This document shows, piece by piece, positions 2,700 to 63,953 of a stretch of 64,000 bases of DNA. The position numbers were made by a program, and so were the translations under genes. This stretch comes from Dicyema japonicum (Eukaryota; Animalia; Dicyemida), in assembly GCA_011109175.1 (NCBI GenBank), contig RDEW01000001.1:1626360-1690359 (forward strand), in the 5' to 3' direction. The first letter of the stretch is position 1; every line of letters starts with the position of its first letter. The notes beneath the pieces were generated by a model. That model did no database searches and was not told the origin of the DNA. It saw only the letters and a program-made list of their open reading frames with translations.

Positions 2700-4272
2700 T
2701 GCACATTGGGCCAAGCGTTACCTATGGGCAGCCTGTTACATTAACCTTGAACCAAGATTAACTTCAATTAATTTTATAACCTTGAACCAAGATTAACTTC
2801 AATTAATTTTATAAATGATTTATTAACCACAAAAAATTAAATTTAAGTAACTTTTTTTAGTCTACTCATTAATACAGTCGATATTTCTCCTTTCGAATTT
2901 TTTATCTATCAAATTAAACTATTTAAAACTACCTCCACGCGATTATTCGATAAAATATTAATTATTTCTGCAACTGGATAATACTGAGACTCAAACTTAT
3001 CCAGTCGCAATGAGGGATTTGTTCCAAAGTCCTTTTTAGCCCGAACCTATTTATTAATGTTTTTGATTCATACTTTATCTCCCATGTTAAAAGTATATTT
3101 ACTATTATGAACATTCATTTTCCTGTTCATAGCTTTGTAATAATTGAATTTTCTTCAATCGATTTAATTTCGAATTGAATCTCTTCGCATTCGGACACAA
3201 ATTATCTGACTGGGAATTATCTATATATAAATTTTTTAAATCAAACTACGTGATTTTCAATAGATTCTGGAGTCGAACAATTAACCAAATCGTCAATTTG
3301 TTCTGGAATCGCACACTCATCACTTAAATTATCTAAGTCATAATGATATAAGTATAACCATTAATTATTGAATTTATTCCCTTAATTCCTCGATATCTTT
3401 CGAAAGGACTTTCGTTAGAAAATGAATGGACCGATATGTTGTAACTGTAGACAGCACTTTCTAATTTATCAAGCCACTTTTTTTCACTGTTATCCAGCAT
3501 TTTTGACAACTTCCTCGTGATCGTCTGATTAAATCTTTCTACAATTCCTTGTGCCCGTGGATTGTTAGGCCTTCCGTGAATTTGCTTAATGTTAAAATCT
3601 TCGCAAAGTTTTCTTATTTCTTGAACATTCATACTCAATTTTATTGACTCCTCCGTGTGAAAACTCGTGCAACGATTTCGCAACATGCTCCATTTCGGTT
3701 TCATTATCCAGGATATGACTAACTTGGAATCAGTTGATTTAAGATACAGTCTAAAATTATTGAAAATTTACAATACCTGTCATTGATAATAGAAAAATTC
3801 TCTATCTTCTTTACAAGCCTATATTTTTGGTGCCTCGGAAGATTTTCGGGAAATTTACCATGCAAAGCATCTTTTAAAGTTTGATATTCAACGCAATCTT
3901 TCACAAAACCCTTGTAAGAAGCCATTGCAACAAAATAATCTTCCATGCTATAAATCACGCTAGAAATCTAGGTTTACCGCTATAAAAAAATAAAATCTTT
4001 ATAATCATAACATTTATAAATAAAAAACTAATTTAACAGGATTAAATCAAGATATAAATCGGATATATAAAATTAAATGTCGGATAATCCAATGAGGGAC
4101 TCATCCTCATCTTTGTCGGTCTGGGATCACTTAGTTAGATGAGAACTTTTATTTCTTTCTTTTGACCCAGTGATCCGACATTAATAATAATAATGTCGGA
4201 TAATCAAAAGACCTTTTCAAGGTCGAAAAAATGTAACAGGCTGCCCATGCGTTACGCGCCGCCCATGTGACA
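2700..4272 (-). mobile_element. Ginger/Tdd-like DNA transposon with gypsy-type integrase, internally deleted
   Basis: Imperfect ~42-bp TIRs (core ATGGGCAGCCTGTTACATT at 2724-2742 and inverted at 4230-4248), TG...CA termini, TAATA on both flanks. Integrase motifs IKQIHGRPNNPRAQGIVERFNQT and YNISVHS...SPFE at 3333-3704; H-x3-H-GG zinc-finger remnant; 26-nt intron at 3751-3776. Confidence 0.8.
2744..2813. repeat. 35-bp tandem duplication inside the left end of the transposon
   Basis: ACCTTGAACCAAGATTAACTTCAATTAATTTTATA occurs twice. Confidence 0.9.
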
Positions 4273-7443: not shown

Positions 7444-7860
7444 TTGGCATCCATTGACATTGATAAAGCTTTCGCCATACATTTAGGCACGTACCACCCA
7501 ATGGAGTCCCCAAGGCTCAGTTCTCTTCCAGTACTTTTTGACTCACATTTGTCCAGCTTGCAAACTAACGAGAGTACATCACTAATGTATGCTGATGATA
7601 TTGAAATTGCGTCACGTCACCATAATACAACCATTGCTTCTACATTCTTCAAGAACACCCTAATACTATTTCCTCATGGGTGGACCATAATCTCTCGAAT
7701 CCTTCTCCCGCCAAATCATTTATAACCATTTTACAACTGACCGTCCTCAGTATAACCTGGAACCTATGCTATGTCTTAATAACACTCCTCTTCATATTGT
7801 TAAAACCTTAAAATATTGTGACTGATGTTTGACACGTGTTTATCATTCTCGTGACGTTTC
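7444..7860 (+). mobile_element. Decayed I/Jockey-like LINE RT fragment; close inverted copy at ~30395-30880
   Basis: IDIDKAF, PQGSVL and MYADDI motifs; long near-identical stretches shared with 30395-30880. Confidence 0.75.
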
Positions 7861-9340: not shown

Positions 9341-10316
9341 GCTTTAGAACGAGTCTCATTGTTCAGACAGTATAGGACAACCAGGGAGGTACCTCTAAAT
9401 GGATCTCCAACTTTTCCCAATCCTGTGATGGATGATCTCCACTAGAGTTTTTCAAATTCATATTTTAATCAAGAATAAGCTAATAATAAGCAATTGACTG
9501 TTATATTCCGACAAAAATCCAAATCCCGACTGAAAGAATTCACGACTTCGTGACATCCGTGCCATACGGACCTTTGGAGACAATAAAATACTACAATGTA
9601 GACCTCTTTAGATCGGTGTTTCAAAACATTAGTCTCAAGGACCATTAGTGTTAAACTTGCACGCCTATAGTGTGAACATTATTTATTTCTGGATGGAAGA
9701 GAAGGTCGAGATCTCTTCTTGCCCCGGACCACCAGGACTAGAGATGAACGTTGAAAAACCACTGGAATAACCTAAATCGGTTAATGGCCTCCAACTTCTA
9801 CTTGTTAGCTAATATGGGGTTGACAACTTAATTTAGTGTATTCACTATAAAGGGACAAGTACTTCCAAATAAAGACAAAAAAGAAAACCTCCGGGTCATA
9901 ACAGTTTGGAAGACCTTCCAAGGATTTATCAATAGACTGAGGGAGCAAATGGGCATTTTTCCTACCACTGACACAACAGTGATCCAGAGGACATGTCTGG
10001 GAGTTGAGGTCGAATCCAGAACTCGTTGCCTAGGAACGAAAGTTTCAACCGGTGGAATGAATAGTTGGATACTTTTGAATGCCGACCAGACATTGGGCTT
10101 CTCCTGAGTAGGTTGGATCAAATGACGCCACCAGAGGGAAGAAAGGAAAATCTTAAACCAATTAGCCACATTGCCCCACGTGGAATAATCCTATTTACCA
10201 ATAAGAAGAAATAATAAAAGTCGTATTAAAAAAATAATATTTAATTCATCATTTTAAATGAATTAAATATTATTTTTGATTTAAAAAACCGCCTTTTAGT
10301 TATTCTTCTTGGTGAC

Positions 10317-11025
10317 ATGAAGAGACTTTATATGCAAATCAGAATGATTAGGGGGCTTTCAATGAAGTCTTTTGCTAAGCAAATGTACGGTATTTACCAC
10401 ATGCCTTTCTATGATGACCTGGTCGAGAAACATTATGAAAACCCAAAGATTACGGAGATCCTAAAATCCCCATTTTCTAATACAACTGGAAAAAAGGAGT
10501 TGGATAACCCACCTTCAGAAACCACGTGCTATACTAAATTATGGGAAATACTTGAATGGACAAAACCAACTGATGCGCACGTGATCCTAAAGTCATGGCA
10601 GGCTTCAATGTGTCTAAGAAACGTCCAGTGGAGAGTAAAGCGGTAAACAACGGAATACCCGTGTCCCACCCGGTCCTCTCCTACTGTGGGGATGTCAACT
10701 ATCTACTCAAAATTGAGTAATCGGTGGACTTACTCACTAGTGATTCTTGGTGCGTCTCTTCTATTCGGGTTGGCAAGGGACTCTTTGATATTCCAGTCAA
10801 ACTGGCCGCACTGGCGGCTGCTGTGAACCACGATCCGAAATACTCATACATTGTATTTGAATATAACCACGTTTAGTGCAACCAACTGATGGTGATCTGT
10901 TTTGAAGCTGAGGGGGCGCCCCTACTTACCACATGTTTGATGAAACAAAGTGCAGGGCGTTGTGGAACACTTTCCTTTACAGATTGACAGCTTTTAGGCT
11001 TATGAGTGGCAGTTTGAATGTTTGA
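10317..11025 (+). CDS. MGME1: MGME1-like (mitochondrial genome maintenance exonuclease 1) homolog with degenerate catalytic motifs
   Basis: Removing 24-nt introns 10717-10740 and 10853-10876 and correcting two 1-nt shifts (~10601, ~10921) gives VSHPVLSYCGDVNYLLKIDDSWCVSSIRVGKGLFDIPVKLAALAAAVNHDPKYSYICNQLMVICFEAEGAPPTYHMFDETKCRALWNTFLYRL. This is collinear with the remembered MGME1 C-terminus (FDNPLQVVAYMGAMNHDTNYSF...GSPAHPHFMD..LC...W..WL.RL). The N-terminus is R/K-rich, acid-poor and presequence-like. Confidence 0.72.
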
Positions 11026-16510: not shown

Positions 16511-17704
16511 ATGCCAATTTCAAAATATAGTTACGGCTTCACTAAAAATGGGGAGGAAATCATAAAGTCTGATCATTTTGTTCATTGGTAGATTTACTTT
16601 GGTGGACAGTCACGGAAAGGTAGAACTGATAAACTATGGTGCCACGGTGACTTCTATATATGTACCAGACAAAAATGGGGAATATTCTGATGTTGTGCTA
16701 GGTCATTCCAACTTGTCAGGTACAGTGATGACGTAATCAAAGAATACGAAGAGAGTAGTGTATACTTGGGAGCTGTTTGTGGGAGAGTGGCCAACAGGGT
16801 CAGGGAGGGCCGGTTTTCACTGGACGGGAAAGTCCACCAGTTGTCACAAAATGTGAAGGACTGTCATCTTCATGGCGGAATTGTCGGGTTCAATAAAAAG
16901 TCCTGGGATTATAAGGTGGATGAAGAACATAACCGAGTCACTTTTATTTTGCGCAGTTGTGACGGAGAAGAAGGGTACCCTGGGGACGTGGATGTGTCAG
17001 TTCAGTACTCACTGGGGGAAGCCTCAAATTCCCAGTCTCCTGGAGTTGTGCTACGTGCTGAATACTCCGCCATTTGCAGCTCACCAACAATCGTCAATCT
17101 GACGAATCATTCTTACTTCAATTTGGGGGGACACGTTGATTTCGGGTAACAATTAAGGACTCGGGGATGATCTCAGATCACCATTTTCAGTTTGGAGCCT
17201 CGTTTTACACTCCCCTTGACGATTCTTTAGTTCCTAATGGTTCCTTACTTTTCTTACCTAATTAGGGGAGATCAGGACCGTGGAGAATACGGTATTCGAC
17301 TTTAGAAAGCCACGTGTGTTTTCAGAGGCGCTTTTAGCTAATGATAAGAGTGGATTCGATCTCAACTATTGCTATGGAAATTCAGGGACTCTAAAAACGA
17401 TGGCAAAGTGCAGAGTCTTGATATTTATTCCAGGGTGGTCCATCCTCCTAGTGGGAGAGCGCTTACAGTTGAAAGTACTCTACCGGGGATGCAGTTTTAT
17501 ACAGGAAACTATCTTATTGATATTCCTGGAAAGGGAGACGTCTTGTATCAACCACAAGGTGCCTTCTGTTTGGAGACACAAAATTATCCTGATGCCATTA
17601 ATAATGTATTCGTGGGTTTGATTTAGCCTCACTGTTTTCCTTCCCCTGTTCTGAGACCGGGAGAAGTGTACCGACATGAGACTACCTTCATATTTTCTGT
17701 TTGA
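16511..17704 (+). CDS. GALM: Aldose 1-epimerase / galactose mutarotase
   Basis: Six introns (16567-16591, 16720-16742, 17135-17157, 17240-17265, 17408-17433, 17606-17626) give a continuous frame with INYGAT, DVVLG, GRVANR, HLHGG, NLTNHSYFNL, QFYTGN and FCLETQNYPD. Confidence 0.95.
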
Positions 17705-19384: not shown

Positions 19385-19862
19385 ATGTTTTTTGTTCCAT
19401 GTTGCACTTTGTTGTCATCTTTCAGTAAATCAAAAATTCACATGGTTTTATCCGAAAACAACAATTTCAAGAATATCTATCGAGCTCTTAGCCAAAAGTG
19501 GTACTATCTTAAAAGTTGATTAAAGTTCAGAGCAGGAATATCTAACAGCCCTCAAGAAGGCCTTTATCCACCTTGGAGATATTTTTTACAAACTCGAGGA
19601 CTCTGGTATAGTCAATCCCGACTTCTCTGCAGATATCCAAGATTCCTCAATTTCCGTTGAAATTTCTAAGAAAATCGGGACTTTTGTGATAAGTCGTCAA
19701 CTGCCTTCCAAACAAATATGGCTTTCATCTCCCATAAGTGGTCCCTCCCATTATGACTTGTTGAAAAATGATTGGGTTGATTTAAGAACAGACAGAAGAC
19801 TCTATTCACTGCTAAGTCACGAATTCTCCTCTTTGCTTAAATTCGACGTAAATTTTGATTGA
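19385..19862 (+). CDS. FXN: Frataxin (mitochondrial Fe-S biogenesis)
   Basis: One 25-nt intron (19501-19525). The spliced protein has GTFVISRQLPSKQIWLSSPISGPSHYD (family signature GTYVINKQ.PNKQIWLSSP.SGP.RYD) and an S/K-rich N-terminal leader. It is not represented correctly in the ORF track. Confidence 0.92.
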
Positions 19863-25289: not shown

Positions 25290-25723
25290 TTCAGCTAAAC
25301 ATAAATGGAATTAAGGAAAAATTAGGGAACTCCACTCACTCCTGGCTTGTCAAAAGATTAACGTTACGTTGATTCAACAGACTGTCTTTTAATGACCCTA
25401 TTCATACATTCTCAGGATACAAAACTATCAGGAAAAACCGTAAAGAAAAAAGAGGTGGAGGTCTGCTCACTCTATTCAAAAAGAACTTGAAATGCAGAGC
25501 CATCTCCTCGGAAGTGAGGAAACTTGTTGGGGATGATGATGTAACAGAAATAATTGGAATCTCGCTCGGGACAACTTGTGAATATCTAGGAAGACTATGC
25601 CTTGTGAATATCTACGTTCCGCCTCCTGGTTCCTGTCCGAAGAGCTATGTTATGCCATACCTATCACTACTGTTTTCCTTTGATGAGATCATCATCTGCG
25701 GGGATTTGAATGGACAAATATGA
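25290..25723 (+). mobile_element. LINE apurinic endonuclease domain relic (I/Jockey-like)
   Basis: QLNINGI, GYKTIRKNRKEKRGGGLL, VNIYVPP and IICGDLN. Confidence 0.8.
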
Positions 25724-26319
25724 GGAAAGGCAAAAGAGGGCTTAGAGTAACGGAGCGTTGGATTTGTGAAGATCACCGACCCGGACCTACGCCTCTGGAG
25801 GCCCTTCTGAGACTAGACTCCAGATCACGGGAAGGTGGCCCTGAAAATTCTGGCAGCCGTCGTGTACGTTCATGCGCGGGCACGAAGGAAGAACACCGGG
25901 CAAAAATGAGGTCTCTGTTAGAATGCATCGGGATCACGTAATAATTAGTTTGGTTTTACCGTGATCTTGAGTTAAATACTTAAATAAAAATTTTTCCAGT
26001 GAGCTTTATTCTTCACTAGAAAATTGAGGTCCTTCTATTTCTCTTATCAAACCAAAACGTGACTCAACCACAAATAATATTTTTATGGAAGGCGATTAAG
26101 ACCAAAAATCGTCCTACTCGAGCAGTCCAGATGGATTTCTACAATAGTATTGAGGAAGACAGGCCCTTATGCTATCATAGCTTTTCAATCTCTCCGTCAG
26201 CAAGGACTCCATCCCTACCCTATGGAAATTATCCGATATACGACCAATCTTAATACCAGGACGGCCGAAAAACTCACCTTCCTTTACAGACCTGTCAACA
26301 CATCAAAACAGTTTAATTC

Positions 26320-27910
26320 AGTTGGGGTGAATATACCTAAATTTATTGGAGATCCAAGACCTCTTACTAACAAAATTACAATAAAGGAAGTAACAAATGC
26401 ATTCATACACCTAAACGGCAATCGTTAAGCTGCCTATGATGGTATCCCGGGCGAGTTACTAAAACATGCTCCGGTTATTGTGGGAATATAATCACGGATA
26501 TATTAACGAGTCTATGGAACTTCAATGTTCACTTCCATTAGGACATGGAGTCTTAATTCCGATACACAAACCTGGGAAAAGAAAGGGATCACTGGATGGA
26601 TCAAGGCCTATTATTCTACTGTCAACTATCAGGAAACATTATCGATCATAGTGCTTAACCGGGAGCCAGTGGAAAAATACCTTTCCTAAAGACAAAGTGG
26701 GTTTAGAAGTGGAAGGTATACCTCAGATATCATGTGGAGTCATCGATGGCTTACATCAATATGTAAAAAATATACGAATGTCATCTACATCCTAGGAATT
26801 GATATAACGAAGCCTTTTGACAACATCAACAGAGAAAAACTCGAGTATCCTAAAAGAACTGCTCGATGAGGACTGCCTGAAACTAAGTCTATTACTGTCT
26901 GAACTAGACCCATACGTGAGAATAGGAAGTAAGCATTCAAAGAGTTTCAGTACCAACATGAGCACTCCACAGGGAGATTCATCATTGCCAATTCTATTCA
27001 TCATATACCTTAAAGCTGCCATAGGGAGCTGAGAAAAGATACGGGTCCCAAATACGAAGACATAATCGAATCACTATATGCGGATGATGTAGACTTTGTG
27101 TCTACTGACCTGGAAACACTTGACTAAATATTACTCCAAGCCAAACTTATTTCGAATAAATGAGATCTGTGCAGAAACATTACAAAAAATGATTATACAC
27201 GAATCGAACAAGCAAATCAAAAAATGATGAATGCTGGAGACATAGAAATAACTCGGTTCACTACTAGGTGACGCCGAGGATATTTGTCTTAGGAAAATGC
27301 TGGCAACCACTTATATAAGAAGCATGTATCACTGAAACTTCGTGTCAGACAATACAACACATTTTTAAGCCAATATTGCTATACAATTCCGGAACACGGG
27401 GAATTTCGAAAAACGATTTGAGAAGCCAGATACTTTTCACAGAAGCCAACTGCGCATACTGAATTTTCTGGCCAGAAAAATCTCAAACGATAAACTACAT
27501 ACTCTATGTAAATCTAGACCAGTTAGCATGGACGAGATGGAATCTATTTGACACATTCTTAGACTAAACCCGACTACCCCGTGCAACAGAATAATGGAAG
27601 AATATTTCTACTGCGCCGGAAATCACGGATTTCGAGGCAGACCAAGAAATACACTTCCAATTTGCTTAAAAGATGATTACGAAAGATATCTAACTAACTA
27701 CCTAATTAATACCATACTTCTATCATATCGGAACAATCTCTTCATTGCCGTAATGGATAGCTCTCCCTCAGTTGTTGATACGGTGGTTCAGTCAGACCTT
27801 AACTTGGTGTATGATTGATTATCTTTCGACATATTTCAATCAAAAGTGGGATCGCTGGCGAACTCATCGGCAAGAGTCCGGGAAGTGCTTATTTGGAGAT
27901 AGCCATGGGT
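26320..27910 (+). mobile_element. RTE-like LINE RT relic with 3' UTR
   Basis: LIPIHKPGK...RPIILLSTIRK, QSGFR, PQGDS, YADDV and FRGRPRNTLP; many stops. Confidence 0.85.
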
Positions 27911-29279: not shown

Positions 29280-30159
29280 TTAAGTATTATCATGAGTGTC
29301 CACAACATACTCAAGTACATCCTGTGCTACCTCTTGTTGGAGGTCCAACTTTAATACCCCCTACAGTCAACCTGAGAATAACTGATTTCCCCGTTACCCC
29401 ACTTCTTATGCACGTAGAAATTAAATTCATCGATTTCTTCCTAAGATAATATCGGTGGTTATACGCTATCTTCTGACGTGTTGGTAGATGGGAACACAAA
29501 TTCGTTGTCGTCTACCAAAGGCTAAGGTTATATTAGAGTTTATACGCTATGTACGGTGTCACTTAAGCCGTTGGTGGCTGTGAGGTTGTTGTTGCCTGAG
29601 GTCGAGTAATCACTGGTGGATTGATCTCTGAGTTTTTTGGCACGTGGCTAAAATTGTAATATGCTTATACGATGTTGTATAAGCTTGGAGTTGTTGGGGG
29701 CAAAATGTCTATAAGGAAGTCGAAGTAGTTCTCCTGTCTTGTGGCAGAAATCATGTCGGTTATCTGAAATACCGAAAAAACTGGGACCTGAAGAGTTTTG
29801 CGGTTCTTTAGGCACGTGTTGTACCAGGACCGTTTTGTGAGGTCTCTTATAAAGAGTTCGGAAGCCTTTGATAAGAGGTAAGGGACGCTGGCTGCTATTT
29901 TTCGATATTTTTTGTCCGCTTTGATGATTCGTTTGATCCGTGCCGGGGGAAGAATGCACTTCCTGACTGACTGCTGACAGATTAGAAGTACAATTACACG
30001 TGTTTGTTGTTGTAAGTCGAGGACTGTTTCGGTGAAAAATTGGGTCATTTCTTGTCCAATAGAAACACGAGATCCGTTTTTTTTGTCATAAAAGACCTCA
30101 ATCACCTCGTTTTGATTAGGTTCTTGGTCCACATCTGGTGTGTCAGGATTGGAGGACAT
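29280..30159 (-). CDS. NFYC: Nuclear transcription factor Y subunit gamma-like histone-fold protein
   Basis: LPPARIKRIIKAD...IAASVPYLLSKASELFIRDLTKRSW...RKTLQ|ITDMISA...FDFLIDILP. Six predicted 23-24 nt introns; the 3' exons and stop at 29280 are less certain. Confidence 0.8.
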
Positions 30160-31229
30160 AATCACAAAACGTCTGGGAAAATAAATATTAAATTTTTTTT
30201 AATATTTAAATTAATTTTTTATAATCATTTCTTTAAAAATTTGTGATCTTTTTTTGAATGCCGTATTTCTAATGTATTTAAAATAATTATGTAATTGAAA
30301 TCTGTTTAATTTGTCCCCATCGCGGTCCGGATCAAGTTGAGATTTTTCTGATATTTGTCGCATATATACAAAACATGTTTCGAGAATGATAAACACGTGT
30401 CAAATACCAGTCACAATATTTTGGGATTTTTGACAAAAGGAAGATGAGTGTTATTAAGACATAGCATAGATTACAGGTTAAACTGAGCGGTCAGTTGTAA
30501 AATGGTTATAAATGATTTGGCGGGAGAAGGATTCAAGAGATTATGATCCACCCATGAGGAAATAGTATTAGGGTGTTCTTGAAGAATGTAGAAGCAATGG
30601 TTATTATGGTGACGTGACGCAACCTCAATATCATCAGCATACATTAGTGATGTACTCTCGTTAGTCGGAGCTGGACAAATATGGGTTAAAATGTGCTGGA
30701 CGAGAACTGAGCCTTGGGGTCTCCATTGGGTAGGTATCTGTAACGTGAGTTGACATGATAAAGGAACGTCAAGACGGCTACACGGGAACGTGAACAACCA
30801 CTGTTAGCCCGGTAAGGGATCTCCGTATCGAGGACCTTGTTGGTTCTGTCGATGTTCTGTCGAAAGCTTTATCAATGTTAATGCAACAATTGTTCTCTTT
30901 GGAGGATTTGTAATAGTCGCGGTATCAGTCTGTTTCCAAAACAACCAAGATATCTCCTCATCCCCGACCCTATCAAAAAAATCAAACTCCTGCTATTCCC
31001 TTCTCTCCGTGGTATTAAAGATTTAGGAATCTAATTGAATGATTGCTGAGTCTACATTTATTTTGTTTTAATGACACATAAAGCTGACATCATTTGAAAT
31101 TTAAGTACAAATTTATTAAGGAAAAAAATATCGGCCAAGATGAGGTCCTTGCTTGAGCGTGATGGGATCACGCGATTAGCTAGTTTGTGTAACCGTGGTC
31201 TCTAGTGTTATTATTAAGTGAGTAAATGA

Positions 31230-39618: not shown

Positions 39619-42532
39619 ATGGAGGATCCAATCAACGATAAGAAGAAAAAGTAATAATAATCACATTTAAACGTAGAAAACAAAGCAAAAACCAAGTTGT
39701 AATGGAACCCCCACCAGAAGAGGAGCCACCTACTCGTGCAATGAAAACAGCAGCTCAAAAGAAGCAAGAAAAGAAACTCAGAGACAAGGAAAAGAGAAAA
39801 AACGCGAGAAACCAAGACCTAATCACTAATATCATCACAGAAGAACCAAATCTTGAGGAAGCTAAACCAGAGGACGAAACCCTTCAGGATCCTCCCCAAA
39901 CTGAGGAACCTACTCAGAAAAAGTCTAAAAAGAGAAACGCAGTATCTTTGTTCCTCTATAATCCAGATGGCAGCCAAACTCAGGGAGGCGATCATCATAA
40001 AGGAAAGAGAAGAGGAAAGGTTGCGTGCTGAAGCGGAAGTGAGGAGACTGAAGGAAGAAGAAGAGGAGAGACTACGAAAGGAAGCTGAGGAAAAGGCCAG
40101 GATCGCTTTGGAAGAGGCAAAGAGACGGGAAAAGGAGCTGAGAAAGAAGCAGATTGCCGAGAACAAACTGGCAAACAGTAAATTGTCCAAAGACCGTCAA
40201 AGGCTAAAGGAATTGCTCCAAAGAAGAGGTTATGTCATTTTGCCTATTTTTAGGACAGGATGCCACTCACTTAACTAAACTTCCTGGGGTAAAGTCGAAT
40301 TCTGTGGTCCCCAAAGTTGAGAATACAACAGTTTCTACGTATGAGGCCGTAGTTGAGGAGGAATTAGTGAGTGGTGGTAGATTATTGTGATGTTTTAGCC
40401 GAGGAGGAAGAATTTGAGGTTTATAAGGGGAACTCCAATCTGCCTCCTGACGAGAGAATCAAGGCAGATATTTTTAGCAAAGACGTGAGTGTAATAAACA
40501 GGGGAGATCCACTGACAACTTGAGGGCCCCTGTTGTGTGTGTTTTGGGGCACGTGGACACAGGAAAGACTAAAATTCTGGACAGGGTTTGCTCTGTTTCT
40601 TTTATCTCTTAGCTCAGACAAACCAACGTGCAGGATGGTGAGGCTGGGGGAATAACTCAGCAGATCGGGGCCACAAACGTGCCAATGTATGAGATTGTCA
40701 AAAAAACGGCTATGGTGAAAAATGTCTGTTTATTTGTAATTTGTTAGATTGATTGCTCAAAATACATGTTTCCTGGATTACTTATAATTGACACACCTGG
40801 ACACGAATCTTTTAGGTTAAGCGGGCTTTTTATTGCAGTAATTTGCGCTCTCGTGGGTCGTCTTTATGCGACATTGCTATTCTCGTTGTGGATGTTATGC
40901 ATGGGATACAGAAGCAGACTATTGAGTCAATTAAACTGCTTATCAAAGGCAACACCCCCTTTATTGTGGCTCTTAACAAGGTTTTTACTGTTTTATATTT
41001 CTAGGTGGACAGAATCAGTAAATGGAAGGTCAATCCTGACGCTGATATTAGAGATTTGATTAACTCTCAGGAGGTCAACTCTAAACTTGACTTTGAATCC
41101 AAATTTAATGAGATTTTCTGTCAGTTTACTGTCCAGGTATCTTATTTTGTAATTTCAGGGATTAAACGTCGCTATTTTCTATGAGAACGATGATATGAAT
41201 AATTGTGCTTCCGTTGTGCCCACTTCTGCCTGTTCTGGTGACGGAATGGGTAACCTAATCACCCTCGTGTGCGACATTTGCCAGGATAAACTAGCCAAGA
41301 GGCTCAGATATTCGGAAGAAGTGGACGCCACTGTTATGGAAGTAAGACAAAGTTGTTATTTTTAGGTAAAGACAATTACTGGATTGGGGACCACTCTGGA
41401 TTTGATTCTGGTGAACGGGAGAATCAATGAAGGGGATACAATAGTTGTTGCCGGACAGGATGGTCCTATTGTGACTTCCGTACGTGCCTTGTTGACTCCC
41501 CCACCAATGAAGAATTGAGGATTAAAGTTTTGCCAATTTATTTCATAATAGTCGAACTATATCCACCACAAGTCACTGAAGGGAGCCAGAGGTATGAAGT
41601 TAACAGCCAAATCTTTGGAAGGAGCCATTGCTGGATTGCCTCTCTTTGTCGCATATCACGAGGATGAAATTGAGATTTGTGAGGTAGTCAGAAATCGTTA
41701 TTTGTGCAGAGAGAAGTCGCCAATTGTCTGAAAAGTGCCTTAGGGAAGATTAAATTGTCTGAGCAGGGTGTCTACGTCCAAGCGTCTACGCTGGGTTCTC
41801 TTGAAGCTCTAACAGATTTCCTTGAGTACTGAGAAGATTCCGGTATTCATATTTATTATTATAGTTCTGTGGAATTAACGTCGGTCCTGTTCACAAGAAG
41901 GATGTGGTCCACGCTTCCGTAATGTTGGAAAAATGTAAAAAGTGGGCAGTAATATTGGCATTCGACGTTCCCATCGATAAGGCAGCTCAAGAACTGGCTG
42001 ATGTCAACGGTGTACAGATCTTCAAAGCTGATATTATTTATCATTTATTTGACAAACTCACAAATTATATAAAGCAAGAATATATCAGAGTCAAGAATTT
42101 GTACCGTTCACGCGCTGTTTTCCCTTGCAGATTGAAAATTCTGCCGGATTATATAATAAAGACGAGGGATCCGATCATTTTGGGAGTCCTAGTGGATGAG
42201 GGCACAGTATTTGTTGGGACACCGATTTGTGTTACCACGGGACTTTTCCTTGGTCATGTGGCTTCTATTGAGTCTGGGAATTGTCCTGTTGATAATGCTC
42301 GTAAAGGATCCGAGGTTTCAATAAAGATCGTTTTCAATGGGAGTGAAGGAAAGAAGATGTATGGACGGCATTTTACCGATCAGAACTGCCTTGTTAGTCA
42401 GGTGATGTGTTTCTCTGATTGTAGGTTACGAGAGAGTCTATTGATATTCTTAAGGAGTATTTTAGAGAAGATTTGAATAAGAGTGATTGGAAGCTTGTAT
42501 TGGAACTTAAGGCAATTTTCGGGATAGTTTAA
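39619..42532 (+). CDS. EIF5B: Eukaryotic translation initiation factor 5B
   Basis: Charged N-terminus; G domain [43 protein letters not shown] and ALNKVD; [11 protein letters not shown]; VFPCRLKI. About 15 micro-introns; two apparent 1-nt indels (~41511, ~41821). Confidence 0.95.
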
Positions 42533-46464: not shown

Positions 46465-49105
46465 ATGCGGCTTTTGACAGTAAACCAATTAATGAGACAA
46501 AATTTTGTGCGATATTTATCCTCAAAGGTGGGTTTTAATAGTAATCACAGATCCCCTTGAGCCAGTATGAGAGTAACGTCTACCTCTCCTTTGATAAATA
46601 CAGAACTAACGTTAATGTCGTCCGTGACAGGCTCAACAGACCGTTGACACTCGCGGAGAAGATTATTTACGGGCATTTGGATAACCCTCACGAACAATCG
46701 ATAGCACGTGGGGAGAGTTATCTCAAATTACGCCCTGACCGTGTTGCCATGCAAGATGTTACCGCCCAAGTTTTAAAATCTTAACATTCCCAGATGGCAG
46801 TGCTTCAGTTCATGTCTTCTGGTTTGCCACGTGTCCGAGTGCCTTCTACTATTCACTGTGACCACTTAATCGAAGCGGTAGTAAATAACGAGAAGGATTT
46901 GGACAGAGCCTTGGTCACAAACAAGGAGGTCTACGATTTCCTCAGCTCAACTGCTGCCAAATACGGGATTGGGTTCTGGAAACCCGGTAGTGGGATCATC
47001 CACCAAATCGTCCTGGAGAACTACGCCTTCCCAGGAGCTCTTATAATCGGGACTGACTCACACACGCCAAACGGGGGTTTCTTTTATTGTTGAACTGTTA
47101 GGTGGACTTTGCTCTATTGCCATTGGAGTTGGTGGTTCTGATGCTGTGGATGCCATGGTGGGAATTCCTTGGGAGGTGAAGTGTCCCAAGGTTTGGCTAG
47201 GAGTTATTTCAACAGATTATGGGTGTCAAACTGACTGGAAGGCTTAACGGCTGGACTTCACCCAAGGATATAATCCTCCATTTATTGGGAATGTTGACTG
47301 TGAAGGGAGGCACTGGCTATGTGTTCGAGTATTTTGGGGAGGCTGTGAACTCGATCTCTTGCACAGGTTCATCGTTTGTTTAAGATCAGGAATGGCCACA
47401 GTCTGTAACATGGGAGCCGAGATTGGGGCAACGACTTCTTTGTTTCCCTACACAAACTCAATGTACAATTATCTGCGGGCTACAAACAGAGAGGCCATCG
47501 CTGAGTATGTCAATGAGAATAGGGACTTTTTGAAGGCTGACGATGGCTGTTCTTATGACCAAGTCATCGAGATTGACCTCGACAAAGTTCAAGTTTCTCT
47601 AATATTAGCTCGAACCCTATGTGAATGGTCCCTTCACTCCTGACCTAGCGACACCAATCTCAAAAATGAAAGAAGTTGCCGTCAAGGCTGGCTGGCCAAT
47701 GGACATTTCTGCAGGTTCCCCTGTCCATTTATTTCAGCGTTGATTGGAAGTTGTACTAACAGTTCTTATGAGGATATGACGAAGGCATGTTCAGTTGCTA
47801 AGGAAGTCATCAAAAAGGGGCAGAAGTCAAAGATCTACTTTGGAGTGACCCCCGGATCCAACCAGATTCAGGCAACCATTGAGAAGGATGGATTGGTTTT
47901 ATCTCCAATTAATAGCAGGCGGATATTTTCTACGAGTTCGGGGCCACGATGCTAGCAAACGCCTGTGGTCCTTGTATTGGACAATGGAAAAGGGAGAATA
48001 TGCCAAAGGGGACACATAATCGATTGTGACGTCTTATAATCGCAATTTTACTGGTCGGAATGACGCCAATCCTCAAACCCACTGTTTTGTGACCTCCCCT
48101 GAGATTGTGACTGCCTTTGCCGCCTCTGGTAGACTCGACTTTAACCCTTATACCGATGAAATTGTTTCTTCTGATGGTTCGGCTTTTACATGTTAATATG
48201 CAGGAAAAACACGCTTCAAGCTTTCGGAACCAAAAGGAGTTGAACTACCGAAGTCATTCGACCGCGGAGTGGAGGGATATTTATCCCCTCCCGAAAGCGG
48301 CTCAGCCTTGGACGTTGTGATTGACCCTGAAAGCCAGAGACTTCAAATATTGAAGCCATTTAAAAAGTGGGATGGAAAGGATTTTACCGAATTGGCGGTT
48401 CTAATAAAAGTTCCGGTTTGTAGTTACTCAAAGGTAAGAGGGAAGTGCACGACAGATCACATAAGTGCTGCTGGACCGTGGCTGAAGTACAGGGGACATT
48501 TGGACAACATAAGCAATAATATGTGCATAACGTGAGTCCCACGTGATTTGTCGTAGAGCTACCAATGATGATAACGGGGAACTGAACTGTGTGATGAATC
48601 AGCTGACTGGAGAGTATGGAGGTGTCCCCGAGACGGCGAGGTACTACAAGGTGGTGTATTGGGGGTATTAGAGGCCAATGCACTTCGGTGGGTCATCATT
48701 GGAGACGACAATTATGGTGAAGGGAGTAGTCGGGAACATGCTGCACTGGAACCGAGGCATTTGGGGGGTGTGGCCGTCATTGTTAAGAGTTTTGCTAGAA
48801 TTCATGGTTTTTTGTGCCTTATATTAGAGAAACCAATTTAAAGAAGCACGGAATGCTACCATTGACATTTAGTGACCCCAAGGATTACTCTAAAGTCCAG
48901 CCTGAAGATCGTCTATCCATAATTGGCCTCACTGAAATGACTCCTGGAAAGGTTGTGGTCATTGTTAATGCAGGACCTCAAATGCTTGGTTGCTCATTCT
49001 AATGGAGAGACGGAAGAGGTTTGGCTGAGTCATTCCTTCAGTGAGGAACAAATAAAGTGGTTTCGGGCTGGAAGTGCTCTCAATTTTATGGCTACTCAAT
49101 CATAA
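46465..49105 (+). CDS. ACO2: Mitochondrial aconitase (aconitate hydratase)
   Basis: Presequence [20 protein letters not shown]; [58 protein letters not shown] and [16 protein letters not shown]. 14 introns of 22-27 nt; one apparent 1-nt deletion at ~48020. Confidence 0.97.
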
Positions 49106-52010: not shown

Positions 52011-54530
52011 GACGTACAAATATCGCACGTAAATTCGGTGGGAAAACGTCTTAGCGACCCGCACTCTGAGGTTCGTGTTAGATAGCAACACTCTGATCAT
52101 ACTGACAGAATCAGGGTCCAAGAATTGTTCCAGTATCCTGAGAAGTAGACCACGGCGGACAGTGTCAAGGCCCTAGAGATTCTATTAGTGGACGTAGGTT
52201 TTCAACAGGCCCAGCATGCTTGTTAGGTTTTTATATTAAAAAACCGGATACAATGGCGAGGTATTCTTTTTTTATAAACATAGAGTTGAGTAGGTAGTTC
52301 CGCCAGTTTGTCGGTTAGTGCAGGCGGCCTGTATTTGAAAAGTTCAGAATTGATCCCATTCGCTCCAGGGTAGCGGGCAATCTTATGTTTGACCATTGCA
52401 TTCGAGATTTCGCAAGGTGTGATAGCTTTATCCAGTTGGGTGGCGTATCCACATGTATGATCTGATATTTCTCCGTGGACAGTTATTATATCCTCGAAAT
52501 ACGACGGAATATATTCAGCCTGATCTTTGAGATTTGTTAAGAATCTTCCATTCCCGTCATGGAGTTTGAGTTTGTTCGTTTGTTTTTTTCTGTTGAGCAG
52601 GCGGATTGCAGTGAACATTCTTGATGAGTCCTTGAACTGTTCAACTTCTGCACTCTTAGATCAAGTAGGTTAGTGACGTGCCTCTTATTCAAAATATTAA
52701 TGGTTTTATTTGGTGGATGCTCTTCTAGACATCAAGATTTGTTTTCTGTTCGGATCAGACGTATTTTCCAGCTGTAATCTTAGTTCCCTTCGTTCTTTAA
52801 CGAGGGCGGGGACATCTGGATGTATACAATTTTTAAGCAGTGCTGGGGACCAGGTTTCGATACTCCCATTTGCTGCCGAAAGGATCCCTTTCATTGTCTC
52901 CGCCCAGGTGCCTCCTGGAGGAAGTCGGCATCCAGGTTCCGAAGGAATCTCGTAATTGACATTTGGTAGTTGTCTCTGATCGATGTAGAGGAGGGGTTCC
53001 CAACCAGTGGTGCTCGAGGAAAATTTTAAGGGGTGCGAGATTTTAAAAATTTATAGTTAATTTTTTAAAAGGAAATTTTTTTTAAAATCATAAATATCTA
53101 TTATTTTTTAATTAATAACTACCTAACTACTTTTTTTGGTTGGAAACTAAATTTATATGACTACATTCTCTAACGTGGTTTTGCTCTGAACCATCGAATT
53201 TTTAAAACAATTTTCAGTGATCTTGGCAACCATCATTCTACTTTATTATATCACACCGAAATTCGCTGATTCAAGCGAGGTCAAGCCTTAACCCGCTTTT
53301 TTGAGTTAAGAAAAATAAAATTATTTCTTCATGAACGTATCATGATTTGCTGTAAGATTTGGAATCACTTGAATTTATCCAAATGCTGGCTTATTTGGTC
53401 GACATTTTTACTCACATGAATAATTAGAGTTTATCTCTTCAAGTGACAGATGTTAACATACTCAAGTGTCGCAAAAAATGGATGCATTCAAAATAAATTA
53501 TCTCTTTGGCGTCGACGAATAGAAACATGCAATTTTGCGAATTTTCAACCCTAACAAATGGCCACAATTCAATGAATATTACTTTTCGTGAAGAAATTGT
53601 CTCATTTAGACATATTGTCCAAATCTTTTAAACTAAATAATTCGGAGGAATGGATTTTGACCCCATTTTGAAAAGTATGTCTGATGATCATGAACTCGAG
53701 GGAAATCTGATTGAGCTTCGAACAAACCGTACACTTCAAATAGAATTTCGCAATTGTACATTGGAGGAGTTTCGTAGTTCAGTAGTGAAAATGTATCCAC
53801 GATTATCTCAAACTGATTTATATGAACTTACTCCATTTGCAACGACATACTTGTGTATATCAGGATTCAGCTCTCTTTTGGCAATTAAAAATAAATACAG
53901 AAATCGCCTGAATTCAGAACATAAAATTCGTATTACGACTAGCAGCAAAATCCCAAGATTCGACAAAATCATGAAAAATAAACAAGAACAAAAAATCCAT
54001 TAATTGTTCACTTTTATTGTGTTTGATTGTTACATTTTTTATTTTTTTTATAGATTAGCTAACTGCTGGTTAAATTAAAAAACAATAATATAAATTGAAA
54101 ATGAATTACAACGGAAACTCTTAAAGGAGGCTAGTTTACCGAGCTGCCCTCTATTCCATGCACTATCGAAATATCTACAATCATACAGAAATTTTGAGCT
54201 GATGCCATGTCCAATGAGAAGAGCTGTTCAGGATTCTCGACCCCGCCGGACTCGTCCTCTTCTTTATCGGTCTGGGATCACTTAGTTGATGAGAACTTTT
54301 ATTTCTTTCTCTTTGACCCAGTGATCCTGGGGTAATAATAATAAAATGTTCTTTGGGTGCGAAACTTATGAAAAAAGAATTATGGGTGCGAGCCCTAAAA
54401 TGTTGGAACCCCTGATGTAGAGCAACAAGATGTTCCATTTTGTAGCTTCTTATTACATCTACGTTTGGCTCTCTTCGTCGTAGGTCAGTTGATTTTTTCG
54501 TTGTGAACTTGGCAGAGACTATATTGTGAT
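52010..54530 (-). mobile_element. RTE-like LINE relic interrupted by a hAT element
   Basis: MFTAIRLL...ITPCEISNAM...PGANGINSELFKY; the reading frame continues across the hAT insertion. Confidence 0.7.
52991..54414 (+). mobile_element. hAT (Charlie/Buster-like) transposon, internally deleted
   Basis: TIRs (G/C)AGGGGTTCC(C)AAC; perfect 8-bp TSD ATGTAGAG at 52983-52990 and 54415-54422; LLYHTEIR*..RGQALTRF, LAYLVDIF and PFATTYLC.SGFS...IKNKYRNRL. Confidence 0.9.
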
Positions 54531-54821: not shown

Positions 54822-55123
54822 CCAAGGATTTTTAGTATTAGAAGGCATAGAACAATAAGAAATCATTTTACAATGTAGGCAGAATTCCACGCAAATTGAT
54901 TTGTTCTGTTCCGAAGATGTTTAGTTACATTAGCAGTTTAAATTATCACTTTCATCGAATTTGTGTCGCTGTAAATTATTTTAGTCTTTTATAAAAAAAC
55001 ATGCCTGGTTAGCTCAGTCGGTAGAGCATCTGACTTTTAATCCGATGGTCGCGGGTTCGAGTCCCGTGTCAGGCTTTTTGTTTCTTTTCAAATATCTTTT
55101 GCTACATTTTTTCTACAGTATTG
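54822..55123 (+). repeat. ~300-bp duplicated unit carrying tRNA-Lys; second copy at 63712-64000
   Basis: About 180 bp upstream and at least 45 bp downstream of the tRNA are collinear with high identity. Confidence 0.9.
55003..55075 (+). tRNA. trnK-UUU: tRNA-Lys (anticodon TTT)
   Basis: GCCTGGTTAGCTCAGTCGGTAGAGCATCTGACTTTTAATCCGATGGTCGCGGGTTCGAGTCCCGTGTCAGGCT; cloverleaf with two G-U pairs in the acceptor stem; T-run terminator. Confidence 0.85.
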
Positions 55124-63880: not shown

Positions 63881-63953
63881 GCCTGGTTAGCTCAGTCGGT
63901 AGAGCATCTGACTTTTAATCCGATGGTCGCGGGTTCGAGTCCCGTACCAGGCT
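63881..63953 (+). tRNA. trnK-UUU: tRNA-Lys (anticodon TTT)
   Basis: Same as the 55003 copy but with a perfect acceptor stem GCCTGGT/ACCAGGC; T-run terminator. Confidence 0.9.

Follow-up and report, generated by a model that had tools for sequence, protein, structure and literature searches.

The closest described system to the locus analyzed here is animal MGME1, also named Ddk1 or C20orf72 (human structures PDB 5ZYT, 5ZYU, 5ZYV, 5ZYW, and 8XA9), which it resembles in the C-terminal core. In human MGME1, metal is liganded by H180, D238, D251, and the backbone of W252, and K253, E223, Q271, and Y275 are also used (PMC6237815). Activity of the human enzyme is dramatically lowered by the substitutions D238N and D251N, and also markedly by Q271A and Y275A (PMC6237815). 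A nucleotide cavity is formed by W152, L149, and F266 (10.1101/2024.01.15.575787). MGME1 co-purifies with PolgA (PMC4222359), and the dead D251N K253A variant, when overexpressed, still lowers 7S DNA (PMC3597694); these two observations make non-cutting roles plausible.

Dicyemid mitochondrial genes have been described on circles of 344 to 1605 bp, beside ∼24,000 circular contigs (PMC6543705), and the data of another study gave only limited support for dicyemid minicircles (10.1101/282285). Among animals, introns of 22 to 26 nt are described in PMC13644364 as known only from dicyemids and myxobolid myxozoans. Here, we analyzed a 64-kb stretch of Dicyema japonicum DNA (the window), in which an earlier note made from the sequence alone had proposed an MGME1 homolog that had lost its chemistry. 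The GC content of the window is 38.2%, compared with 36.7% for the D. japonicum genome (PMC6736024) and 29.1% for Henneguya salminicola.

The proposed gene was recovered both in public sequencing reads and as an open frame (Table 1). Of the five runs that contain the stretch, four were compared, and each of the four carries one extra base behind position 10606 and another behind 10911. Both frameshifts are therefore errors of the assembled window, and the two 1-nt corrections assumed in the earlier note are present in the reads. Once corrected and spliced, the frame runs for 220 codons with zero internal stops. The ATG at 10317, the first of the frame, is the putative start codon; it lies upstream of the point at which the one intron-free contig begins (10389). 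The genomic layout, with introns present, was found in three runs, all from one sample. In run X5, which comes from a separate sample and study, a 576-nt contig covering 10389 to 11010 is without either intron and is otherwise identical. The gap at intron 2 in this contig was reported as 16 + 4 + 4 letters within 10851 to 10876, which fits a GT-AG intron at 10853 to 10876. The X5 contig is most simply read as a spliced transcript; it could be a processed DNA copy, since the run is labeled "DNA?". An additional candidate intron at 10610 to 10628 was rejected, as these letters are retained in X5 and the missing base accounts for the change of frame. As a control, spliced alignment of the neighboring gene for eIF5B (C-terminal part, 41300 to 42529) predicted five introns of 22 to 26 nt and two apparent frameshifts over ∼1.2 kb, which makes tiny introns and indel errors a general feature of the window. 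The eIF5B frameshifts are likely assembly errors, and the best matches of this protein are 45 to 56% identical; among the best 120 of 1869, part of which carry names, no myxozoan or orthonectid was named. Directly upstream of the MGME1-like gene lies a high-copy repeat (10040 to 10200), whose summed contig depth in run X1 reaches ∼85 times that of the gene.

Table 1. Features of the MGME1-like gene, in window coordinates
Feature	Position	Strand	Remarks
MGME1-like gene	10317-11025	+	220 codons, three exons, two introns
Exon 1, codons 1-134	10317..10716	+	Assembled window misses one base behind 10606
Exon 2, bearing degenerate motifs III and IV	10741..10852	+	Set by reads and intron offsets
Exon 3, through the stop codon	10877..11025	+	One base missing behind 10911; final strands and C-terminal helix kept
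Intron 1, 24 nt, GT-AG, phase 2	10717..10740	+	Absent from X5; conserved MGME1 site
Intron 2, 24 nt, GT-AG, phase 0	10853..10876	+	Absent from X5; conserved MGME1 site
Predicted mitochondrial presequence, residues 1-30	10317..10406	+	Composition only
PKITEIL, resembling the alpha1 start motif (P131 onward)	10443..10463	+	10.7 bits, p=0.01 versus shuffles
Residues 73-95, best fit to alpha1-alpha2 (L91=L149, W94=W152)	10533..10601	+	7.5 bits, p=0.009
E106, possible motif I Glu (E223) given a 7-residue insertion	10631..10633	+	Gap-free register gives G113
Motif II: D126 at L236, N128 at catalytic D238	10691..10699	+	Asp in 66/66 relatives
Motif III: S141-I142-R143 replacing D/E-W-K	10760..10768	+	Register set by intron
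Motif IV: K154 and L158 for Q271 and Y275	10799..10813	+	Q, Y in 66/66 relatives

Direct searches gave little. Pfam searches with single exons and with the read-through core returned no relevant family and no PD-(D/E)xK match, and none of the 134 candidates scored when the read-through core was compared with longer proteins. A repeat-rich surface protein, the single match among 1.84 billion representatives, was rejected as chance, having matched partly through intron letters. In sequence searches of the PDB, no MGME1 chain was retrieved with exon 1 or with the final portion of exon 3, and all four matches of exon 2 alone were MGME1 chains, though weak (E 0.83 to 1.2). With the read-through core, an unrelated glycosyltransferase (E 0.67) ranked level with MGME1 (E 0.73), so PDB sequence matches alone are weak evidence.

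Because these searches were weak or empty, a reference set was built. A motif scan of metagenome contigs yielded 116 loci comprising animal exons, continuous eukaryote-type frames, and bacterial-type genes; one of these loci matches human MGME1 with an E value of 2.5e-48, and the reference relatives match Pfam PDDEXK_1 (PF12705). An alignment of five sequences then led to 75 proteins, many of them named MGME1, and a profile was made from 66 of the first 69 (domain longer than 150 residues). As a catalytic-motif pattern was the first route to these relatives, the set favors active members. On the 66-member profile the window protein scored 50.8 bits, and the best of 2001 shuffled or reversed controls reached 11.7; an earlier profile had given 46.0 bits against a shuffle maximum of 9.2, and a mixed profile of 45 sequences gave 39.1 bits. 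Residues 115 to 214 align to MGME1 with an HH-suite probability of 97.8% over 99 columns, at a core identity to relatives of 19 to 37% (median ∼27%). In a scan of all 2145 six-frame segments of the window, the top two matches were two exons of this same gene. The best single match is an MGME1-like protein of the brittle star Amphiura filiformis (P0029, 42.5 bits), so the homology named in the earlier note stands for this C-terminal part and the best hit is MGME1-like. Within the reference set, a compact bacterial-type family of ∼200 to 250 residues (L006, L008, L023, L030, L044, and similar loci), which we take to be cyanobacterial, has the exact motif III-IV spacing of animal MGME1; this shared spacing may bear on the origin of MGME1.

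The positions of the introns provided a second line of evidence. From 109 loci with the common spacing, 57 were without an in-frame upstream motif II and gave 37 distinct exon-type peptides. An AG ending exactly 22 nt before the W252 codon was found in 33 of these 37 loci, compared with 2 of 41 continuous frames, and a GT starting exactly 54 nt after the start of the Q271 codon was found in 27 of 37 and 6 of 41, respectively. The window introns sit at identical offsets (22 and 54 nt) from I142 and K154. Both introns thus lie at family sites, which, at the level of sequence, shows the gene to descend from animal MGME1 and at the same time fixes the register for motifs III and IV.

In that register, the catalytic site is degenerate. 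All 66 relatives have H180, E223, D238, K253, Q271, and Y275, with either Asp or Glu at position 251; motifs II to IV are present in 71 of the 75 matches, the other four being incomplete or frameshifted. In the window protein, N128 stands for D238, S141 for D251, R143 for K253, V144 for T254, K154 for Q271, and L158 for Y275, and none of these six residues occurs at its column in any of the 66 relatives. None of the six catalytic or phosphate-binding residues is kept, whereas 15 of the 28 remaining conserved columns are (p=0.024 by the Fisher test, a value that rests on six positions picked from the literature and on relatives biased to active members). The spacing from W252 to Q271, 19 in 66/66 relatives, is 12 here, corresponding to the deletion of 7 residues of the beta3-alpha5 loop. 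The exact place of this gap is uncertain; residues 136 to 149 contain neither Asp nor Glu, and motif III is therefore not restored in any register. The motif IV helix is also without acids except the conserved D150. One alternative placement, in which MAFFT took the letters of intron 1 as motif III, was rejected, since these letters include an in-frame stop, are missing from X5, and supply no Lys. Read in frame, intron 1 does match motif III places with Asp, Thr, and Ser in the MAFFT alignment, probably by chance. The Asp-to-Asn, Asp-to-Ser, and Lys-to-Arg changes at D238, D251, and K253 that the earlier note had proposed are therefore supported by the profile and by the intron-fixed register, and the damage is wider than was claimed there, extending to Q271, Y275, T254, and the loop. 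With its core metal- and phosphate-binding residues all replaced, the protein is predicted to lack DNA-cutting activity.

The N-terminal half behaves differently. The collinearity and the retained scaffold that had been described for the whole protein hold for the C-terminal core only; the N-terminal half has either become much shorter or diverged beyond alignment, and its placement is ambiguous. Residues 1 to 30 contain six Arg/Lys and no Asp/Glu, with a hydrophobic moment of up to 0.57, a basic leader that suggests mitochondrial import. Two segments compete for alpha1 (Table 1). The match of PKITEIL does not reach W152 (-5.5 bits over 22 columns). Residues 73 to 95 aligned pairwise with the brittle-star protein at p=0.002 and formed a helix-turn-helix in a single-sequence model. 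Over 66 pairwise alignments, W94 was placed on W152 in 28, the PKITEIL match stood alone in 22, the placement fell elsewhere in 16, and W76 or H88 was placed on H180 in none. On the family profile, W76 at H180 scored -4.6 to -10.9 bits and H88 at H180 scored -5.2 to -17.1 bits. Both assignments were therefore rejected, including the His-to-Trp replacement (KLWEILE for RFHEALE) of the earlier note. A G-x3-H setting for H180 was sought in the window protein, and no placement rose above chance (best p=0.54).

If W94 corresponds to W152, the distance from W152 to H228 is 24 residues here versus 71 to 119 in 65/65 relatives. About 50 residues of the DNA-threading arch would then have been lost, and with them alpha3 (which carries H180 and forms half of the ssDNA-threading arch) and alpha4. 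Given the modest signal, the two rival segments for alpha1, and the dependence of global alignments on gap cost, we regard this deletion as somewhat more likely than not. A third family intron, located near the alpha2-alpha3 junction and evident in animal loci from a break between exons, is absent here (none in 10389 to 10716), which fits either deletion of the alpha2-alpha3 region or intron loss.

For motif I, the gap-free register places G113 at E223 and the register with an insertion places E106 there, with scores of only 1.4 and 2.5 bits, respectively. Close to the site, the acids that persist are D126 (at L236) and possibly E106. Other PD-(D/E)xK enzymes have migrated catalytic residues, and a nuclease with a rebuilt active site might draw on E106 and D126 as carboxylates and on K154 or R143 as the basic residue: D126 shares a strand with the canonical Asp, which it precedes by two residues, and E106 can be aligned with E223. 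K154, moreover, occupies a position that touches the scissile phosphate in human MGME1 (PMC6237815). Such a rebuilt site would have to do without any acid in residues 136 to 149, with D150 alone in the motif IV helix, and without the His of G-x3-H, and would use replacements seen in 0/66 relatives; we judge it the least probable of the readings considered here.

Many DNA contacts have been lost along with the catalytic residues, including T254, the K257/K259 loop, Y275, and probably both H180 and F173; this loss speaks against strong binding of DNA. The DNA-binding role suggested in the earlier note is possible from sequence. Loss of both kinds of residue would also suit a protein repurposed off mtDNA altogether, such as a structural component of a different mitochondrial complex, with the fold alone kept. 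Modeled from its single sequence, exon 1 is helical and compact (pLDDT 74.8) and unlike any listed fold: Foldseek gave no match at E≤0.001, and the best Z score was 5.8, to generic helical bundles. (The model of the core, built with intron letters included, had a mean pLDDT of 47.5, too low for use.) We consider such repurposing very unlikely, as the alpha2-side DNA-stacking residues appear to be kept and there is no positive sign of another partner.

We also asked whether the gene is decaying. In 1000 simulations of neutral substitution, the frame was still free of stops in 3.6% of runs at 80% identity and in no more than 0.1% at 60 to 40%. Given the median core identity of ∼27% with no stop or real frameshift, the frame has been maintained through most of the divergence. 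This result, together with the absence of the frameshifts from the four runs compared, speaks, as the earlier note did, against a plain pseudogene. Under relaxed selection, a relic gene would be transcribed and open yet jobless, its nuclease having become dispensable on small circles. Nearly all functional residues are gone, there are deletions and an N-terminal half that cannot be aligned, and in lice the loss of mtSSB tracks genome fragmentation, apparently as its consequence (PMC12797587). A relic sits poorly with the intact frame, with the preferential keeping of structural positions, and with the runs themselves, among which the sole coding difference (position 10938, in two of the four) is synonymous; we find it quite improbable. 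A very recent loss of function would still be compatible with the evidence, which comes from a single species; protein searches with the read-through core of the gene found no ortholog from a related species.

Duplication is a common origin of pseudoenzymes, and the gene might accordingly be a dead paralog that acts as regulator or partner of an intact MGME1 elsewhere in the genome, in which case MGME1 chemistry would not have been lost. The six-frame scan of the window (2145 segments) turned up no second MGME1-like frame. Genome reduction is strong in dicyemids, with 5,012 genes in D. japonicum (PMC6736024), and MGME1 orthologs are one-to-one in most chordate genomes (PMC3597694). We therefore hold a dead paralog to be unlikely, although it is the least unlikely of the alternatives.

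Elsewhere in the window, Pfam searches on one piece each identified aldose 1-epimerase (16691 to 17626), frataxin (19524 to 19862), a CBF/NF-Y-type histone-fold protein (29665 to 30198), and aconitase (46785 to 48535). The presence of frataxin and aconitase points to a working mitochondrial matrix. Two tRNA-Lys(TTT) genes lie at 55003 to 55075 and 63881 to 63953. Five frames (3333 to 3767, 7444 to 7725, 25373 to 26428, 30471 to 30803, and 52223 to 52660) resemble integrase, reverse transcriptase, and endonuclease, and are presumably relics of mobile elements.

Taking these observations together, we lean toward the hypothesis that the gene encodes a selected, mtDNA-related pseudo-nuclease, a non-cutting accessory of mtDNA replication that is likely mitochondrial. 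The core fold appears to be preserved in the C-terminal part, and the metal site is presumably gone. The apparently kept cavity, the basic R143 and K154, the co-purification of MGME1 with PolgA, and the 7S DNA effect of the dead human mutant favor a replisome accessory with weak DNA binding. In the mechanism that we propose, whose specifics taken jointly we put forward tentatively and at somewhat less than even confidence, the MGME1 descendant would keep its place beside the mtDNA polymerase, at the replisome, and would hold single-stranded DNA loosely and would neither thread nor cleave it. On the alpha2 side, W94, L91, and F149 would stand for W152, L149, and F266 of the nucleotide cavity. 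R143 and K154 would line the old active site and place positive charge where the scissile phosphate sat, and the arch and the loop beneath it would be shortened. Flap trimming and the removal of linear mtDNA would be left to other enzymes, or might be dispensable on very small mitochondrial circles. A bolder version, which we consider improbable, would make this protein the only MGME1 of dicyemids: its opened arch would need no free DNA end and would bind single-stranded DNA of the 0.3- to 1.6-kb minicircles as a loading or segregation factor, and the loss of trimming and clearance would be part of the reason why mtDNA broke into single-gene circles and why thousands of noncoding circles persist.

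Compared with known systems, the window protein shares with animal MGME1 the equivalents of H228, Y233, G235, D267, P269, N280, D282, and the last helix, two intron positions including their phases, and a basic N-terminal leader. It differs in that motifs II, III, and IV are replaced, H180 is unassignable, the 7-residue loop is deleted, and the protein has 220 residues rather than 344. The engineered dead human variants (D238N, D251N, K253A, and D251N K253A) are hit at the same positions, and N128 amounts to a natural D238N; in contrast to those variants, the changes here are natural, are spread over motifs II to IV, and come with deletions in DNA-threading parts. The score on the mixed profile likens the protein to PD-(D/E)xK or RecB-type nucleases (PF12705, including bacterial MGME1-like proteins), whereas its pieces match none of the PD-(D/E)xK Pfam families and its introns tie the gene to the animal lineage. 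As judged from these residues, it is an MGME1 by descent and, by the defining catalytic motifs, lies outside the active family. The literature matches listed, in which subscription journals are thinly covered, hold no report of a naturally dead MGME1 or of one from a parasite. The terms MGME1 and PDDEXK are absent from the text supplements of two dicyemid genome papers, whose image tables may bear on MGME1.

A lineage that keeps the gene but drops its chemistry would offer a natural experiment on a non-catalytic role of MGME1, a role hinted at by the human data. The gene is also a candidate for the change in replication machinery that accompanied the break-up of mtDNA into minicircles in dicyemids. 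The nearest precedent is the loss of mtSSB in lice with fragmented mtDNA (PMC12797587). As in these lice, a maintenance gene has degenerated in a parasite lineage with minicircles; unlike louse mtSSB, which was lost outright, the MGME1-like gene has been kept, open and spliced, with its chemistry removed. Judging by the louse case, a change of this kind may follow from fragmentation and need not have caused it (PMC12797587).
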